From Nitrospirota bacterium (GTDB lineage Bacteria > Nitrospirota > UBA9217), in the NCBI GenBank assembly GCA_963818475.1, contig CAWFSF010000002.1:768001-832000 (forward strand): DNA of 64,000 bases. Direction: 5' to 3'. The position numbers were made by a program, and so were the translations under genes. Under the pieces are notes generated by a model. The model saw nothing but the letters and a program-made list of their open reading frames with translations, ran no database searches and was not told the DNA's origin. Positions 10,111 through 35,358 of the stretch are shown here, in pieces; within the stretch, counting starts at the first letter, position 1, and the number at the start of each line of letters is the position of its first letter.

Positions 10111-10226
10111 AAAAAAAAGCCGGGCATACCAAAGAAATCATCCTTTGGCAGCCCGGCCATCTTTCAGGGTCAAAGATCCGAAGCTTTCCGCGCCCTTCTC
10201 GCGAAGGGGTAGGCTTTATCAGGATC
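10111..10226 (-). promoter_or_regulatory. c-di-GMP-I (GEMM-I)-type riboswitch with overlapping terminator
   Basis: Minus strand GATAAAGCCTACCCCTTC-GCGA-GAAGGGCGCGGAAAGCTTCGGATCT...GATGGCCGGGCTGCC, then a terminator hairpin and T8; TTGACA-N17-TATAGA promoter upstream. Confidence 0.8.
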
Positions 10227-29474: not shown

Positions 29475-29580
29475 AAAAGCCGGACTTGCCGATACATGTT
29501 CCTTCGGCAGCCCGGCTGTCTTCTTCTCAAGACCCGTCGCTTTCCGCGCCCTTCTCGCGAAGGGTTCGGCTTTATCGGGA
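29475..29580 (-). promoter_or_regulatory. c-di-GMP-I (GEMM-I)-type riboswitch with overlapping terminator
   Basis: Minus strand GATAAAGCCGAACCCTTC-GCGA-GAAGGGCGCGGAAAGCGACGGGTCT...GACAGCCGGGCTGCCG...TCGGCAAGTCCGGCTTTT; TTGACA-N17-CATACT upstream. Confidence 0.82.
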
Positions 29581-29677: not shown

Positions 29678-30694
29678 CTAAGGCGCAAACCTCCCGGGAA
29701 TTATTGTGCCGCACGCCGGGCACGTGCCGTTCTTGATCTTATTCTGCCTGACGTCGAATATATACCGCTCGATCAAAAGCTCGCCGCATCCATGGCACCA
29801 GGTATTCTCCCATCGATGGCCGGGCACGTTGCCGAGGTACACGTACCAGAGCCCCGCTTCTTTTCCCAAGGTCCTTGCTTTCTCCAGCGTGCGGATCGGC
29901 GTCGGCCGGATATCAAGCAGTTCATGATGAGGATGGAACCTCGTCACATGCCACGGCGTAGCAGGGCCGAGGCTGTTCTTGATCCATGCCGCGATGTCCC
30001 GGAGCTCCTTTTCATCATCGTTGTATGCCGGGATGATGTTCGTAACGACCTCCACATGCATCCCGAGCTTCTGCGCCTTTTCCGCGGCTTCAAGTATGCC
30101 CTTGAACTTCTGAATATTCCCGATCCTCAGGTACGTCCTGTCGGAAAACCCTTTGATGTCCACCCGGTAGACGTCGAGGTACGGGGCAATCATGTCGAGC
30201 GCCTCTTTCGTGATATACCCGTTCGTTACATAATTGGTACGGAGCCCTCGTGCTTGGGCGATTTTTGCCGAGTCGAGGGTATATTCGAACGAGAGCGCGG
30301 GCTCGTTGAATGTCCACGATATGCCGAGGCAGGCTGAATTTTTGGCCTGATCAACCGCGTTTTCCGGCGAGATGTATTCGGTGTCCATGGGCCCTTCTTT
30401 CCAGTGGGCAATGTCCCAGTTCTGGCAGCCCGGACACCGGAAGTTGCATCCCACGCTTCCGAGGGAAAGCCACCGCGAACCCGGATAGTAGTGGAAGACC
30501 GGCTTTTTTTCAATGGGGTTGATCGAGATCGACGAGACTTCGCCGTAGATCAGGCTGTACAGCACGCCGCTTTCATTTATCCGTGTTCGGCACCAGCCCG
30601 TCTTGCCTTCCGGGATGATGCATTCGCGCTGGCAGGTGTGGCACCTGATCGCATTATCGCGGAGTACGGTATATATATATGCTTCTTTTTTCAT
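29678..30694 (-). CDS. amrS: AmmeMemoRadiSam system radical SAM enzyme
   Basis: CHTCQRECII..G.CRTR, PIEKKPVFHYYPG, GCNFRCPGCQNW, YVYLGNV, CxxC motifs. Confidence 0.88.
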   Translation of the reverse strand: MKKEAYIYTVLRDNAIRCHTCQRECIIPEGKTGWCRTRINESGVLYSLIYGEVSSISINPIEKKPVFHYYPGSRWLSLGSVGCNFRCPGCQNWDIAHWKEGPMDTEYISPENAVDQAKNSACLGISWTFNEPALSFEYTLDSAKIAQARGLRTNYVTNGYITKEALDMIAPYLDVYRVDIKGFSDRTYLRIGNIQKFKGILEAAEKAQKLGMHVEVVTNIIPAYNDDEKELRDIAAWIKNSLGPATPWHVTRFHPHHELLDIRPTPIRTLEKARTLGKEAGLWYVYLGNVPGHRWENTWCHGCGELLIERYIFDVRQNKIKNGTCPACGTIIPGRFAP

Positions 30695-31096: not shown

Positions 31097-31502
31097 CTGC
31101 GCTGTCTCCTGTCTTTGCGGGGTTTAGTGAAGCAGGTGGACATTTCTAATTTTACATTCGTAAGTGAGATGGTCAATGATTTCGTATGGCACAAGCTGCA
31201 CTCTGCCATGAGCCTCCGCTCTCCAGCACAGCATCGGAGCAGATACGTTTAAAGTCCGTCGAATTGAAGCAGTCTATGAATAGATTGTACCACTGGAAGG
31301 AAGGGGGCGAAGCACTGAAGCATTACACCAATGTAATTGCGACTAAAAGTCTTATTCAAGCTCATCCTGATTTAATTGCTTTGAATTGCGGCCTTCTTTG
31401 ACAACGCACATATCCGTTGTTATAGTTGTTATATGAACAATGCGTGATAACCATCAACTGGGGATGTTTTTTTTAGACGTTCAACATGAGGAGGCAGCTA
31501 TC

Positions 31503-33377
31503 ATGGATCAATACCAGGAATTTTCCATCGCGCCCGATGCGCAATCAATGCTGAAAAAGGCCCATGACGACGGCGTGGTGACCGCCTGGGACCGGGCCAG
31601 ATTGCAACAACCGCAGTGCCAGTTCTGTAAATCAGGGTTGTCATGCCGTGTATGCGCCATGGGTCCCTGCCGGATCGATCCCCACGGTAAAGGCGCGCAT
31701 TACGGCGTATGCGGAGCTGACGCCGATATCATTGCGGCGAGAAACCTGTCACGGATGGTTGCGGCCGGTTCCGCGTCCCATTCGGATCACGCCCGCGAGC
31801 TTGTCGAGGTGCTGTATAGCGTGGGCAAAGGCAAGGCAGCGGGATATGAGATAAAAGACCCGGAAAAGCTGAAGAGGGTAGCTACTGAATACGGCATTGC
31901 GATCAACGGTCTCAGCGACAAGGAGCTCGCGGTCAAGCTGGCGGAATCAATGATGGAAGATTTCGGGATGAAAAAAGGACGGGTGACCTTTGTCAGCAGG
32001 GCGCCGAAACAGCGAATCGAGCTCTGGGAAAAATTGAACGTCGTTCCGCGCGGGATAGACAGGGAGACCACTGAAACGATGCACCGCACACACATGGGCG
32101 TGGACAACGATTACGTCTCCCTGCTGCTTCACGCGGTGAGGAACAGTCTCTCCGACGGCTACGGGGGGTCGATGATCGGCACTGAATTGTCCGACATCCT
32201 CTTCGGGACGCCGAAACCCGGTCTTTCCACGGTCAACCTGGGGGTATTGAAAGAGGACCACGTCAACATCCTGGTTCATGGCCACAACCCCGTCGTGTCC
32301 GAGATGATCGGGCTGGCGGTCGAAGACGGCGAAATGATCAAACTTGCGCAGTCGAAAGGCGCAAAGGGCATCAACCTCGCCGGTTTGTGCTGTACCGGCA
32401 GCGAACTCATGATGCGCAAAAAGATACCGATGGCCGGCAATCATCTCATGACCGAACTGACGATCGTCACCGGCGCCGTTGAAGCTGTCATCGTGGATTA
32501 CCAGTGCGTCATGCCTGCCCTCGGGCAGGTGGCGCAGTGTTATCACACAAAGCTGTATTCCACATCTAACAAGGCAAAATTTCCTTTTATGGAACACGTT
32601 GAATTCAACCCTGAGAACGCAAAGGAACAGGCCTTCAAAGTGGTACGGGCATCGATAGAAAACTATGTCCGCAGAAACAAGGACAGGGTATCCATCCCCG
32701 TCTCTCCGGTCAAGACTATGAGCGGATTTTCCGTGGAGTCTATTGTGGGGGCGCTGGGCGGTAGCCTCACGCCTCTGATCGACGCGATCAAGGCCGGGAA
32801 AATAAAAGGTGCCGTAGGTGTGGTCGGATGCAACAACCCGAAAATAAGACAGGATTACGGTCACGTAGGGCTGATCAAACGCCTCATAGCGAACGACATC
32901 CTTGTTCTCACCACGGGATGCGCGAATGTGGCTGCGGGAAAGGCCGGTTTGCAGCTGCCGCAGGCAGCTAAATGGGCCGGTCCCGGCCTGAAAGAGATCT
33001 GCGGCCTTCTCAATATACCTCCCTCACTTCATGTCGGCTCCTGTGTAGATAATTCAAGGATTGTCGTTATCGCCTGCGCATTGGCCAACGCACTCGGCGT
33101 TGACATCGATAAACTGCCCCTCGCCGGTGCGGCCCCGGAGTGGTATTCTGAAAAGGCCGTTGCCATTGCCTTCTATGTTATGGCCAGCGGGATTTATACC
33201 GTTCTCGGGGTAATGCCGCCTATCGGTGGAAGCACGAATGTAACGAAGCTCGCAACGTCCGGGCTGAAGGATGTCTTCGGCGCCAGCTTTGCTGTAGAAG
33301 CCAACCCCGACAGAGCAGCTGATCTTATCATTGCCCACATTACCGAGAAGAGAAAGGGATTGGGTTTGAGTGCTTAG
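31503..33377 (+). CDS. cooS: Anaerobic Ni-Fe carbon monoxide dehydrogenase catalytic subunit
   Basis: CQFCKSGLSCRVCAMGPC, HSDH, HGHNP, GLCCTG, DYQC, VGCNN, TGCA, GSCVDNSR, EWYSEKA. Confidence 0.95.
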   Translation: MDQYQEFSIAPDAQSMLKKAHDDGVVTAWDRARLQQPQCQFCKSGLSCRVCAMGPCRIDPHGKGAHYGVCGADADIIAARNLSRMVAAGSASHSDHARELVEVLYSVGKGKAAGYEIKDPEKLKRVATEYGIAINGLSDKELAVKLAESMMEDFGMKKGRVTFVSRAPKQRIELWEKLNVVPRGIDRETTETMHRTHMGVDNDYVSLLLHAVRNSLSDGYGGSMIGTELSDILFGTPKPGLSTVNLGVLKEDHVNILVHGHNPVVSEMIGLAVEDGEMIKLAQSKGAKGINLAGLCCTGSELMMRKKIPMAGNHLMTELTIVTGAVEAVIVDYQCVMPALGQVAQCYHTKLYSTSNKAKFPFMEHVEFNPENAKEQAFKVVRASIENYVRRNKDRVSIPVSPVKTMSGFSVESIVGALGGSLTPLIDAIKAGKIKGAVGVVGCNNPKIRQDYGHVGLIKRLIANDILVLTTGCANVAAGKAGLQLPQAAKWAGPGLKEICGLLNIPPSLHVGSCVDNSRIVVIACALANALGVDIDKLPLAGAAPEWYSEKAVAIAFYVMASGIYTVLGVMPPIGGSTNVTKLATSGLKDVFGASFAVEANPDRAADLIIAHITEKRKGLGLSA

Positions 33378-33631
33378 AATAAGTTTTAGACGGCAATGGC
33401 CCCGACGACTCCGCACTTCGCTGGTACGATCTCTTGTGGCTGGAATTAAATATCCTCTGGGACGTGGAAAAGATATGTACGAAGGGAGTATTTTAATTAA
33501 ACAACTCTGACCCTTTGTCGCTCCGGAGCGTACCGGCCAAGGGGTACTAAAGTGCTAATAAGGTGGTTGTTTTTCGTTTCCCTACATCTTTTTAATATCA
33601 CCGCTTGACAAGGTGTGGTATATAATAATTA

Positions 33632-33930
33632 GGCGTTGCCGGACCGACACTGAGAAGTGTCAAACGTATCATTAACTTCCGTTGAGGGTCTTAAGCGCCA
33701 ACCGGGCGTGATCCGGAATCGGCAAACAGCAGTCCGTAAGGGCTGTTAACCCGCCGGTTTGCAGATCACCAAAGGCTGGAAAGCGGAAAGCCCCTGAGGC
33801 TGAAGGAGAATTCGGCGAAGGAAACGAATTGCTTCAGGATTGGCGAGAGCTGATCCCAGAGTGATCGTGGATCTTCCCGAATATCCCGAGGTTCAACGGA
33901 ATGATTAAGATGCGGGTCTAAAGCAACGCC
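33632..33930 (+). ncRNA. Putative ~300-nt structured RNA of unknown family
   Basis: ORF-free; 5'/3' ends pair (GGCGTTGC/GCAACGCC); many nested helices and GNRA loops; TATAAT at 33621-33626 and a terminator downstream. Confidence 0.7.
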
Positions 33931-33958
33931 GTAATTTATCGTCAAATATGAAAGTATG

Positions 33959-33996
33959 AAAGCCGGCAGGGGTTAGATGTTCCTGCCGGCTTTTTT
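33959..33996 (+). terminator. Rho-independent terminator
   Basis: AAAGCCGGCAGG...CCTGCCGGCTTTTTT. Confidence 0.85.
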
Positions 33997-34650
33997 CGTT
34001 CCCTCATCAGAGAAACCCTTCTCGACCACATCATGAGCCTGGCAAGTTCAGGAAGACAATCGTAACTGCGGAACGGTTGCAATCACCTCCCCCTCATGAG
34101 GTTTCAACAACTGGCAATTTGATTCATAAGAATGCAATAACTTCTATTTCTCAAAGTTGAAGCACGGATCGATCCCGGGGAAGTGCTAATATAAGAGCAG
34201 ATACCATGACAACAGTCAAATTCGTAACCGAATTGGCCACTAATTGCATGTGGCACTACAAAGGGGGATTGCTCACGACTAGAAGAAAATAGGTGAACTG
34301 GTCCCTCCAGTCGATCGGCAAGGGGAATACCGTAATGTCGTTCCCTTGGGTGCAAAGTTCGTGAAAGGACCCATTCGGCAGCGGTATATCGAGAAATTCG
34401 CAACCAATAATGTGGCCAACTTGGAGGCCATCGAGCAGTTCAACTTCGTCGCAGGGATATCGATAAAGATGTCGGCCGGATTCGTCCAGGGGGCAACTGA
34501 TAGTGAAAGCGTTACGCAACGGGTGCAACAACGTCACCCGGGTGCCTCAACATTGTTCAGGCATGCAACTTTCCCATAAATGAAGAATCATAAAAAAAAG
34601 ACGGACGCGGGAAACAAACGATACAGAGGCAAGGGAGGGAGGATCTTTAA

Positions 34651-35358
34651 ATGAAAATAAAAATTTTAACAAGTATCTTAACTGTGTGCATTTCCAGTGG
34701 CTGTATGGTAACGCACAGCGAAGTACAACACTTTCGGACAGACTACGACCCGCCTAATTATTTTCGCCTATCTATAGAGAGCACAGGCTTTCTTTCAAGA
34801 GCCAAGTACTCATCAGGCTTCTATGATGAAAAAGCTTTGGATATCTTTCTCAACGAGTTTGGCAGTAAGGATTACGCGAAATCCGGCCAAGTGAGCTCTA
34901 TATCCCAATCTGATGAAAAAACAATGTTCGACAAGAGCACCGCAGAAACTACCAGCAAAGACGGCCATGTGCAACTAAAACCGCTGAGTTCGAATGGTGT
35001 TTATGCCTACATTTTCAGCACAAATGCTGATGATATCGCGAGGACTATCGGTGCGTTCGCTGAAAATCAAGTTGTCGCCGACTATATCAGCGCCCTGATA
35101 AATAAGGAAAAGTTAACAGCGCTCGATGACAAGGAGAAAACGCTGAATCAGAAGGCGGGTGCCATAGCGTCCATTCGTATGGAGTTAGAAGGTCTGATAA
35201 GCCAAGTCCCAGACCAACCCGGCAATGACGCGCAACCTGATTTAAGTAGCTATATCTATCTACTTACCGCCATCGCACGAGGCGTCGATTTACAAGCTAG
35301 TTTCAAAAATCTGGACGAAGCCAAAGCCTTCTTTGACGCATTGCCATCGAAACCATAG
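34651..35358 (+). CDS. Lipoprotein of unknown function
   Basis: Lipobox ISSGC; GGAGG RBS. Confidence 0.75.
   Translation: MKIKILTSILTVCISSGCMVTHSEVQHFRTDYDPPNYFRLSIESTGFLSRAKYSSGFYDEKALDIFLNEFGSKDYAKSGQVSSISQSDEKTMFDKSTAETTSKDGHVQLKPLSSNGVYAYIFSTNADDIARTIGAFAENQVVADYISALINKEKLTALDDKEKTLNQKAGAIASIRMELEGLISQVPDQPGNDAQPDLSSYIYLLTAIARGVDLQASFKNLDEAKAFFDALPSKP

Follow-up and report, generated by a model that had tools for sequence, protein, structure and literature searches.

Few large, highly structured RNA classes are known from bacteria, and RNase P RNA, transfer-messenger RNA (tmRNA), 6S RNA, OLE, ROOL/GOLLD and the omega RNA of IscB each opened new biochemistry. The ornate non-coding RNAs (ncRNAs) OLE, raiA, ROOL, GOLLD and HEARO are several hundred nucleotides long, fold into multi-domain covarying structures, are encoded by stand-alone genes, have a narrow taxonomic range and are abundant in RNA pools. 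6S RNA and the ~300-nt Ms1 RNA are abundant, stable, closed by pairing of their 5′ and 3′ ends, and present as paralogues in some bacteria. The end-pairing helix of Y RNAs is a protein-binding site; in Y RNA and YrlA this helix is conserved in sequence and not just in pairing, and several paralogues occur per genome. CsrB, CsrC and RsmXYZ are likewise abundant multi-paralogue RNAs, each with its own promoter and terminator. These likenesses are shared, as far as its apparent abundance allows, by the RNA analysed here, which is encoded on the + strand of a 64,000-nt stretch of DNA from a Nitrospirota bacterium of the lineage UBA9217 (assembly GCA_963818475.1, contig CAWFSF010000002.1, positions 768,001 to 832,000; hereafter the window). 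The region 33631-33930 of the window is a stand-alone gene for a non-coding RNA of ~300 nt, with its own extended −10 promoter and a strong terminator. It belongs to what is almost certainly a real family of structured ncRNAs, which we rate as a new RNA class.

The original prediction, made from the letters of the window alone, had taken this region for a large, stand-alone, highly structured RNA, ribozyme-like or an RNP scaffold, of a possibly undescribed family that is not RNase P RNA, signal recognition particle (SRP) RNA, tmRNA or 6S RNA. Our analysis bears this out: the RNA has no match in Rfam 15, its promoter and terminator are conserved, its helices carry compensatory changes and it is present in RNA libraries. 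A cmscan search of the window against the 4227 families of Rfam 15 at their gathering thresholds, which served as family cut-offs, yielded just three matches, to a tRNA and two c-di-GMP-I-GGC aptamers, none of which overlaps the RNA. When 33400-34200 was scanned at E ≤ 10, ten weak matches and no meaningful one were obtained, eight of them on or around the terminator hairpin. A weak match to CsrC (16.7 bits, E = 0.011, cut-off 61) ran across body and terminator, one to SMCR2_1 (15.4 bits, cut-off 50) lay on the body in the opposite strand, and the only Y-RNA-like Rfam match, YrlB, reached 18.1 bits against a cut-off of 97 on the terminator. Three paralogues from the same genome and six other members gave no Rfam match over the RNA either. 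The four housekeeping RNAs are encoded elsewhere in the genome (RNase P RNA 278 bits, tmRNA 190, SRP RNA 73 and 6S RNA 87.6, all above their cut-offs) and the RNA matches none of their models, which excludes that it is a divergent version of any of the four. A full-text literature search, which did not extend to supplementary files and subscription journals, returned no paper on such an RNA, and those listed of the few papers naming UBA9217 have, by their titles, ecological or metabolic subjects. The family is thus probably undescribed in Rfam and the searched literature, and a description elsewhere seems unlikely.

The RNA also differs from each of the systems that it resembles. It is smaller than OLE, ROOL and GOLLD, is not phage- or plasmid-borne (no family match was found in viral contigs, phage records or plasmid records), is not accompanied by a neighbouring partner gene of the kind of IscB or OapA, and, unlike the other ornate ncRNAs, forms a family of one to five diverged paralogues per genome, with four in the window's own genome. 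It has no Rfam clan match, and its branched two-domain fold contrasts with the long irregular duplex with a central bubble that is formed by 6S RNA. Compared with Y RNA and YrlA, it is without a tRNA-like module, and the gene for their partner Ro60/TROVE (PF05731) was found neither in the 91% complete genome that contains the window nor in the flanks of 98 loci; a Y RNA or YrlA was rejected as no Ro60 gene was found in the genome. CsrC is the best weak Rfam match on the body, but long-range covarying helices take the place of the string of GGA hairpins of CsrB, CsrC and RsmXYZ. GGA motifs were not enriched (9 against 7.25 ± 2.2 in shuffles, 27% of which were as high; the three other paralogues gave a similar picture), and CsrA (PF02599) was not found in the same 91% complete genome. 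A CsrA sponge was rejected on these grounds; the CsrC-type match of a paralogue covers its terminator only.

Relatives of the RNA were found by blastn and with a covariance model (CM). A blastn search revealed a second copy with 85% identity in the window's own genome. Of the genomes sampled, 9 of 36 belonging to the window's family carry copies found by blastn, as against 0 of 24 that represent other Nitrospirota families. The covariance model R1, built from eleven copies, comprises 313 positions and 75 pairs. The window's family is represented by 64 genomes, all of them metagenome-assembled genomes (MAGs) of Nitrospirota, and in 59 of these, covering 19 of 19 genera, the model identified ~97 places; family, order and class hold the identical set of 64 genomes. 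The RNA had been called an orphan, a description that does not survive these relatives and the three paralogues in its own genome. Among 150 genomes sampled across the phylum, R1 matched 25 of the 27 from the window's family and 1 of the 123 from 21 other families. This sole match outside the class (G047; 17.2 bits), a 70-nt partial one to model positions 187-259, lies inside an ORF (open reading frame) of 192 amino acids (aa), has no Rfam match and was dismissed as spurious. In a pattern scan of named genome records, 38 of 44 rows were MAGs labelled Nitrospirota or Nitrospirae; of ten loci tested, four matched the CM, whereas five non-Nitrospirota rows and one locus labelled Nitrospiraceae (L277) did not. 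Another pattern scan returned Nitrospirota or Nitrospirae MAGs in 5 of 15 rows, and one looser pattern was discarded as unspecific, with at least 120 random rows. As far as searched, the family is confined to one uncultured class of Nitrospirota, and within it the RNA is vertically inherited. The window copy displays the traits that define the family, namely the closing helix GGCG(U/C)UGC...GCA(A/G)CGCC (here GGCGUUGCC...GGCAACGCC), the hairpin P2, the P3/P4 stalk, the CUUCA...GAAG stem of domain II, a length within 245-330 nt and its own TGnTAnnnT promoter. Clustering separated a core group of 51 members (57 with close outliers) of ~300-335 nt from type B, to which the window copy belongs (20 members, 289-306 nt), from type C (5 members, 245 nt) and from smaller groups.

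Evidence for the fold was obtained from the window copy itself and from its relatives. The 311-nt core of the + strand reached a minimum free energy (MFE) of −135.3 kcal/mol against −93.96 ± 4.83 kcal/mol in 100 dinucleotide shuffles (z = −8.56), none of which folded as well, so that folding exceeds that of shuffled controls; the − strand folded less well (z = −5.31). In a 99-row CM alignment, 87.1% of the cells were paired compared with 37.6-43.2% after sliding the 3′ partners by 1-3 columns, and 68 of the 75 modelled pairs showed changes on both sides (844 cells), with none of 500 shuffles reaching any of these measures, although such an alignment is fitted to the structure of the model and its pair counts are inflated. 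The test was therefore repeated without structural fitting, on 45 core genes aligned with plain MAFFT: 89.6% of the cells were paired against 30.7-42.6% after sliding, and double changes occurred in 49 of 80 pairs. The core structure used here was derived from averaged pair probabilities, because RNAalifold on the plain MAFFT core alignment gave few helices, and was tested on the MAFFT alignment only. In the 99-row alignment, the twelve column pairs with the highest mutual information after average product correction (MIp) were all pairs of the model. A search for pseudoknots by mutual information in the same alignment yielded no convincing non-nested helix, and the top covarying pairs outside the model had a low Watson-Crick content.

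The resulting structure is a stalk of helices P1 to P4 that opens into two domains (Table 1). When the fold is mapped onto the window, P3 spans 33665-69/33910-14, P4 spans 33679-85/33893-99 and domain I reaches to 33793, its GUAA-capped hairpin being paired at 33728-33/33742-47. P1, which closes the RNA, is exceptional: its pairs in 97 sequences were GC 97, GC 96, CG 96, GC 97, UA 96, GC 96 and CG 88, and changes on both sides were found neither in these 97 sequences nor in 45 core sequences, while nearly every other helix covaries. Such invariance without covariation fits sequence-specific recognition. The equivalent of P2 is kept as CACC...GGUG in core sequences, where double changes affect three of its five pairs. 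All subtypes retain the stalk and domain II, whereas those of 245-262 nt are without the inner part of domain I; the conserved internal loops are purine-rich, and nucleotides of junction and loops are conserved. With regard to the helices originally proposed, all complementary segments lie at the coordinates given: the seven arm pairs tested are complementary throughout, and the positions stated for CTGAAG/CTTCAG, AATTCG/CGAATT and the hairpin 33838-55 are correct. The stalk, the hairpin 33646-61 and the GUAA- and GAGA-capped hairpins agree with both MFE and consensus structure, except that P1b agrees with the MFE only. Five inner pairings are complementary but were not kept in evolution, namely the hairpin 33702-16, GCAAAC/GTTTGC, GATCAC/GTGATC (33764-69/33861-66), CTGAAG/CTTCAG and AATTCG/CGAATT; the partners supported instead are marked in Table 1.

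Table 1. Features of the RNA gene in the window, helices of the RNA and paralogues in the same genome (G000)
Feature	Position	Strand	Evidence or remark
Type-B gene unit (promoter region, RNA and terminator)	33546..34020	+	similarity to type-B loci ends about here
Direct repeat TTTTTCGTTTCCCTACATC, matching the post-terminator tail 33991-34008 TTTTTTCGTTCCCTCATC	33572..33589	+	read from sequence
Possible regulator site, conserved TTGACA box, 8 nt upstream of −10	33605..33610	+	in most type-B upstream regions
Extended −10 TGGTATATA (TGn + TATAnT), ending seven bases before A33631	33616..33624	+	seen in sequence; conserved
RNA, ~300 nt, predicted start A33631 to last base of closing helix	33631..33930	+	CM match 33625-33936, 339.1 bits
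P1, closing helix GGCGUUGC/GCAACGCC	33632-33639/33923-33930	+	MFE and consensus; sequence-invariant across family
P1b	33641-45/33915-19	+	MFE only
P2, hairpin GACACU-GAGA-AGUGUC	33646-51/33656-61	+	MFE
P3	33665-33670/33909-33914	+	5/5 modelled pairs change on both sides; MIp ranks 5, 9, 27
P4 UUCCGUUGA/UCAACGGAA, opening into the junction that bears domains I and II	33677-33685/33893-33901	+	MFE and consensus
Domain I	~33686..33795	+	all pairs of its helices change on both sides; MIp ranks 2, 6, 7, 10, 12
Domain I helices	33686-89/33790-93, 33698-703/33774-79, 33708-13/33764-69, 33717-23/33753-59	+	covariation; last three supported instead of proposed pairings
Domain I GUAA-capped hairpin	33728-35/33740-47	+	MFE and consensus
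Domain II, kept in all subtypes	33800..33891	+	covariation; MIp ranks 1, 3, 4, 8, 11
Domain II helices	33805-07/33884-86, 33810-15/33877-82, 33824-27/33865-68, 33830-35/33859-63	+	covariation; middle two supported instead of proposed pairings
Domain II hairpin, GAGA loop	33840-44/33849-53	+	MFE and consensus
Intrinsic terminator, 15-bp stem 33958-72/33980-94, 7-nt loop, then U6	33958..33996	+	fold; conserved in type-B loci
Second type-B copy, own genome	G000:C5:209524-209830	-	308 bits; own terminator
Divergent copy, own genome	G000:C6:1357935-1358247	+	56 bits; own terminator
Syntenic core-type copy, own genome	G000:C5:451114-451434	+	34 bits; own terminator

The borders of the gene are marked by conserved signals. 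The TATAAT/extended −10 element predicted just ahead of the first paired base was confirmed in the sequence and is conserved: a TGnTAnnnT motif was found in 17 of 20 type-B genes, in 16 of which its end lies 6-9 nt ahead of GGCG. From this conservation and spacing, transcription would start at A33631. The TTGACA box is not the −35 element of the TGGTATATA promoter, because the spacing of 8 nt is too short. The strong terminator that had been proposed was likewise recovered, with a folding energy of −24.6 kcal/mol (z = −5.52). A simple promoter and terminator scan listed neither element; the −10 was read from the sequence and the terminator was found by folding. Promoter, terminator and the abundant G-U pairs in the covariation table assign the RNA to the + strand. 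This strand of 33616-33996 carries no ORF of at least 40 aa, in agreement with the ORF-free stretch described originally, and two ORFs of 59 aa (33766..33945) and 46 aa (33942..34082) overlap on the − strand. A protein-coding gene was ruled out, as the longest open frames of 20 close homologues vary in strand and frame; the lengths of these homologues (289-306 nt) vary by steps not divisible by three.

Comparison of 32800-34800 with 19 type-B loci by blastn gave matches starting at 33503-33631 and ending at 33930-34124, most of which run from 33543-33546 to 34013-34031. For one of these loci (L019), similarity to the window reaches 34124 and resumes at 34147-34196. A direct repeat TTTTTCGTT(T)CCCTnCATC flanks the type-B unit, and the same motif pair occurs around other type-B genes. 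Inspection by eye shows a likeness between 33532-33544 and the 5′ arm of the terminator, which gives the impression of a terminator tail duplicated upstream of the promoter. The ~650 nt past the terminator (34000-34650) contain no gene on the + strand and only a 99-aa ORF on the − strand (34104-34403) without Pfam match.

Core and type-B genes differ in their setting and in their ends. Core genes, with a mean column identity of 64% across 19 genera, are syntenic: a gene for a chorismate-binding enzyme (PF00425 + PF04715) lies upstream on the opposite strand at 51 of 57 loci, within 250 nt at 49 of them, and beyond it an AAA_23 gene follows at 25 loci. Downstream of core genes we found a small methyltransferase gene (21 loci), a GlgC-like gene (8) and others on either strand. 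The 20 type-B genes share only the ~475-bp unit listed in Table 1, and their neighbours are unrelated. The setting between cooS and lipoprotein genes that had been noted for the window copy is therefore incidental, although flanking genes of this kind are present: the stop of a Prismane/CO-dehydrogenase gene (31440-33377; PF03063, E = 2.6e-177) precedes the stretch 33616-33996, and small ORFs without Pfam match, two of them with signal or lipobox-like N-termini, flank it on the other side. A leader of ~36-65 nt (e.g. L046:1950-2007, L224 and L218) is implied for core genes, 56 of 57 of which have a TGnTAnnnT element at a distance of 43-94 nt ahead of P1. The motif TCTTT[GC], (G)ATCTTTGAAA-like, lies in this leader 23-30 nt before P1 in 52 of 57 core genes; it is not found in type B and may be a processing or regulatory signal. 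Core genes end with P1 directly followed by U5-7, whereas type-B genes have a separate terminator ~30 nt past P1. Two to four diverged members stand in tandem or in clusters at G006:C90:4680-12890 (four in ~8 kb, adjoining the syntenic core position), G010:C12:189057-197706 and 350584-351300, G016:C3:47626-49247, G071:C145:10104-13509 and G007:C67:84591-87832.

Small shares of the words of the stretch were found in twenty public sequencing runs, and four runs (X1, X2, X8 and X12), the only ones used as evidence, were compared via assembled contigs at a likeness of at least 88%. Contigs within 33631-33930 came from X2, X8 and X12, recorded as RNA in three studies, and from X1, the library of which is labelled metatranscriptomic, yet marked "probably DNA". 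The summed word depths were 4.8 for X2, ~1,500 for X8, ~2,500 for X12 and ~1,000,000 for X1, contig depth being a poor measure of expression and an RNA library alone no demonstration of transcription. The flanks 33400-33615 and 33940-34200 were without cover in the four runs, which is no evidence of transcript ends, as the flanks of relatives may differ. One contig from X8 (depth 600.9) and one from X1 (depth 10.8), which belong to different studies, contained a head-to-tail joint from 33917/33918 to A33631. It reads 33918(+AAAGCAACGCC), i.e. ...AAAGCAACGC(C) plus 1-3 letters and then A33631/GGCG, and goes back 288. No head-to-tail DNA arrangement was found when one genome each of 185,579 species was searched: 116 pattern matches at 113 loci had no RNA-like flanks. 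Therefore, the joint arises at the level of RNA or cDNA. It could be derived from a circular or concatemeric RNA, or from template switching of reverse transcriptase on an abundant RNA with adjacent ends.

Our best guess is that the RNA is stable, abundant and trans-acting, as one of four paralogues in its genome. For its mode of action we tentatively favour, as the most likely role, binding of protein or service as scaffold of a ribonucleoprotein (RNP). Transcription would start at about A33631 from the extended −10 and end at the conserved hairpin. The 3′ tail may then be trimmed back to the closing helix, with a mature end ...GCAACGCC at 33930, where contigs from RNA libraries join exactly. 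As covariation shows, the RNA folds into the stalk, its ends locked by the invariant 8-9-bp helix, and carries two domains, of which I is variable and II conserved. Invariant P1 and the conserved purine-rich internal loops could serve as the recognition sites of a protein. The syntenic core gene, which is present in almost every genome, may supply the basic function, and the dispersed paralogues, including the window copy with its own type of promoter, may supply condition-specific variants. Several points weigh against the protein-binding scaffold. Since neither Ro60 nor CsrA was found, the two best-known protein-decoy models are left without their protein; no conserved neighbour gene encodes an obvious RNA-binding protein, and no partner protein is known. 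The evidence for start, 3′ trimming and abundance comes from contigs assembled for relatives (88-100% alike) and not from raw reads of the organism, in addition to the reservations made above for contig depths and for pair counts in the structure-fitted alignment. Finally, the head-to-tail joint hints at chemistry at the RNA level, which a passive scaffold does not explain.

Such chemistry is the core of the idea that the RNA is a ribozyme or self-processing RNA, the multi-domain core of which catalyses, for instance, its own end-processing and circularisation, the functional form being a circle or arising via a circle. The complex two-domain fold with its conserved junction and loop nucleotides, the 3′-to-5′ joints in contigs of two runs from different studies, the want of a head-to-tail DNA arrangement among the 185,579 species genomes, an invariant P1 that holds both ends together and a gene for the RtcB ligase in the same genome all speak for it. 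We rank it second, but nevertheless consider it quite unlikely, as template switching on a very abundant RNA with side-by-side ends yields the same joint. Furthermore, the share of joined molecules is not readable from contigs, the joint contig of X1 having a depth of 10.8 against thousands for others; no known ribozyme family in Rfam is matched, core genes end with P1 plus U6 as ordinary terminated transcripts do, and the RtcB gene is unlinked to any paralogue. An equally small chance is given to the proposal of a new class of bacterial RNA that becomes functional when its two ends are joined, with P1 as the recognition or active site for a 3′-to-5′ ligation at the RNA level that is self-catalysed or of the RtcB type. 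An architectural RNA that assembles with copies of itself into a defined multimer, as association into multimers is reported for ROOL, GOLLD and OLE RNAs, would account for the high apparent abundance, the ornate conserved fold, the lack of a partner gene nearby and the several paralogues per genome. At ~300 nt, however, the RNA is much smaller than these three, no conserved self-complementary loop emerged, the top covarying pairs outside the model are low in Watson-Crick content, and the family was not found in phage, plasmid and viral collections, in which ROOL and GOLLD are common; we regard self-assembly as improbable.

A regulatory small RNA (sRNA), acting on mRNAs through an exposed conserved loop, by base pairing or with the help of Hfq, is given no better odds than self-assembly. 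The stem plus U6 with which core genes end is a typical Hfq-binding module, Hfq and three extra Hfq-like frames are encoded in the genome, and multi-paralogue sRNA families are known. Against this, covarying helices tie up nearly the whole 300 nt, type-B RNA seems to stop at P1 and to have no U tail, and neither its size nor so strongly conserved a structure is typical of sRNAs that act by seed pairing; the Hfq gene is unlinked to any paralogue of the RNA. We also considered a selfish repeat resembling a miniature inverted-repeat transposable element (MITE) and a cis-regulatory leader or riboswitch, which together appear very improbable. The perfect 8-9-bp terminal inverted repeats (GGCGTTGCC/GGCAACGCC), several copies per genome, the variable contexts of type B and the direct repeat around its unit might suggest such an element. 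The syntenic core copy (51 of 57 loci), kept in 19 genera with a mean column identity of only 64%, compensatory changes throughout the interior (68 of 75 pairs), promoter and terminator located outside the repeats, the lack of a transposase and a low number (1-5) of diverged copies contradict a MITE. A leader was rejected because the genes downstream differ in family and strand at 57 core and 20 type-B loci; moreover, the RNA has a dedicated terminator ahead of any downstream gene.

Some observations concern other loci mentioned above. The RtcB match in the window's own genome (G000:C6:1410921-1412217, − strand) consists of two adjacent pieces covering profile positions 1-353 and 352-426, which suggests a frameshift or sequencing error. 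The Hfq loci (G000:C6:1477240-1477997 and C6:811252-811437) comprise a canonical gene and three consecutive Hfq-like frames, one with an in-frame TGA. The two c-di-GMP-I-GGC aptamers of the window lie on the − strand at 29502-29579 and 10143-10223 (67.4 and 59.7 bits, cut-off 59), the former just upstream of a radical-SAM gene (29678-30694, − strand). A sub-threshold c-di-GMP-II-like match (L200:455-537; 36.1 bits, cut-off 53.5) is located ~2.5 kb from a 262-nt member of the family in genome G010.

The family described here has the hallmarks of a functional RNA, being near-universal in its class, strongly covarying, closed end to end by an invariant helix and represented by several paralogues per genome. 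It is apparently highly abundant in RNA libraries from freshwater and sediment, and the class that encodes it comprises uncultured, environmentally widespread Nitrospirota. The family has so far been invisible to Rfam and to genome annotation; structure determination can now draw on a well-populated alignment of its members. A concrete and testable question arises as well, the circularisation of a bacterial ncRNA, for which the present evidence is junction contigs in two runs that could include an artefact of reverse transcription. If ligation at P1 were true, the RNA would be a covalently closed, exonuclease-proof and hyper-abundant circular ncRNA with a near-housekeeping status in this class of Nitrospirota.

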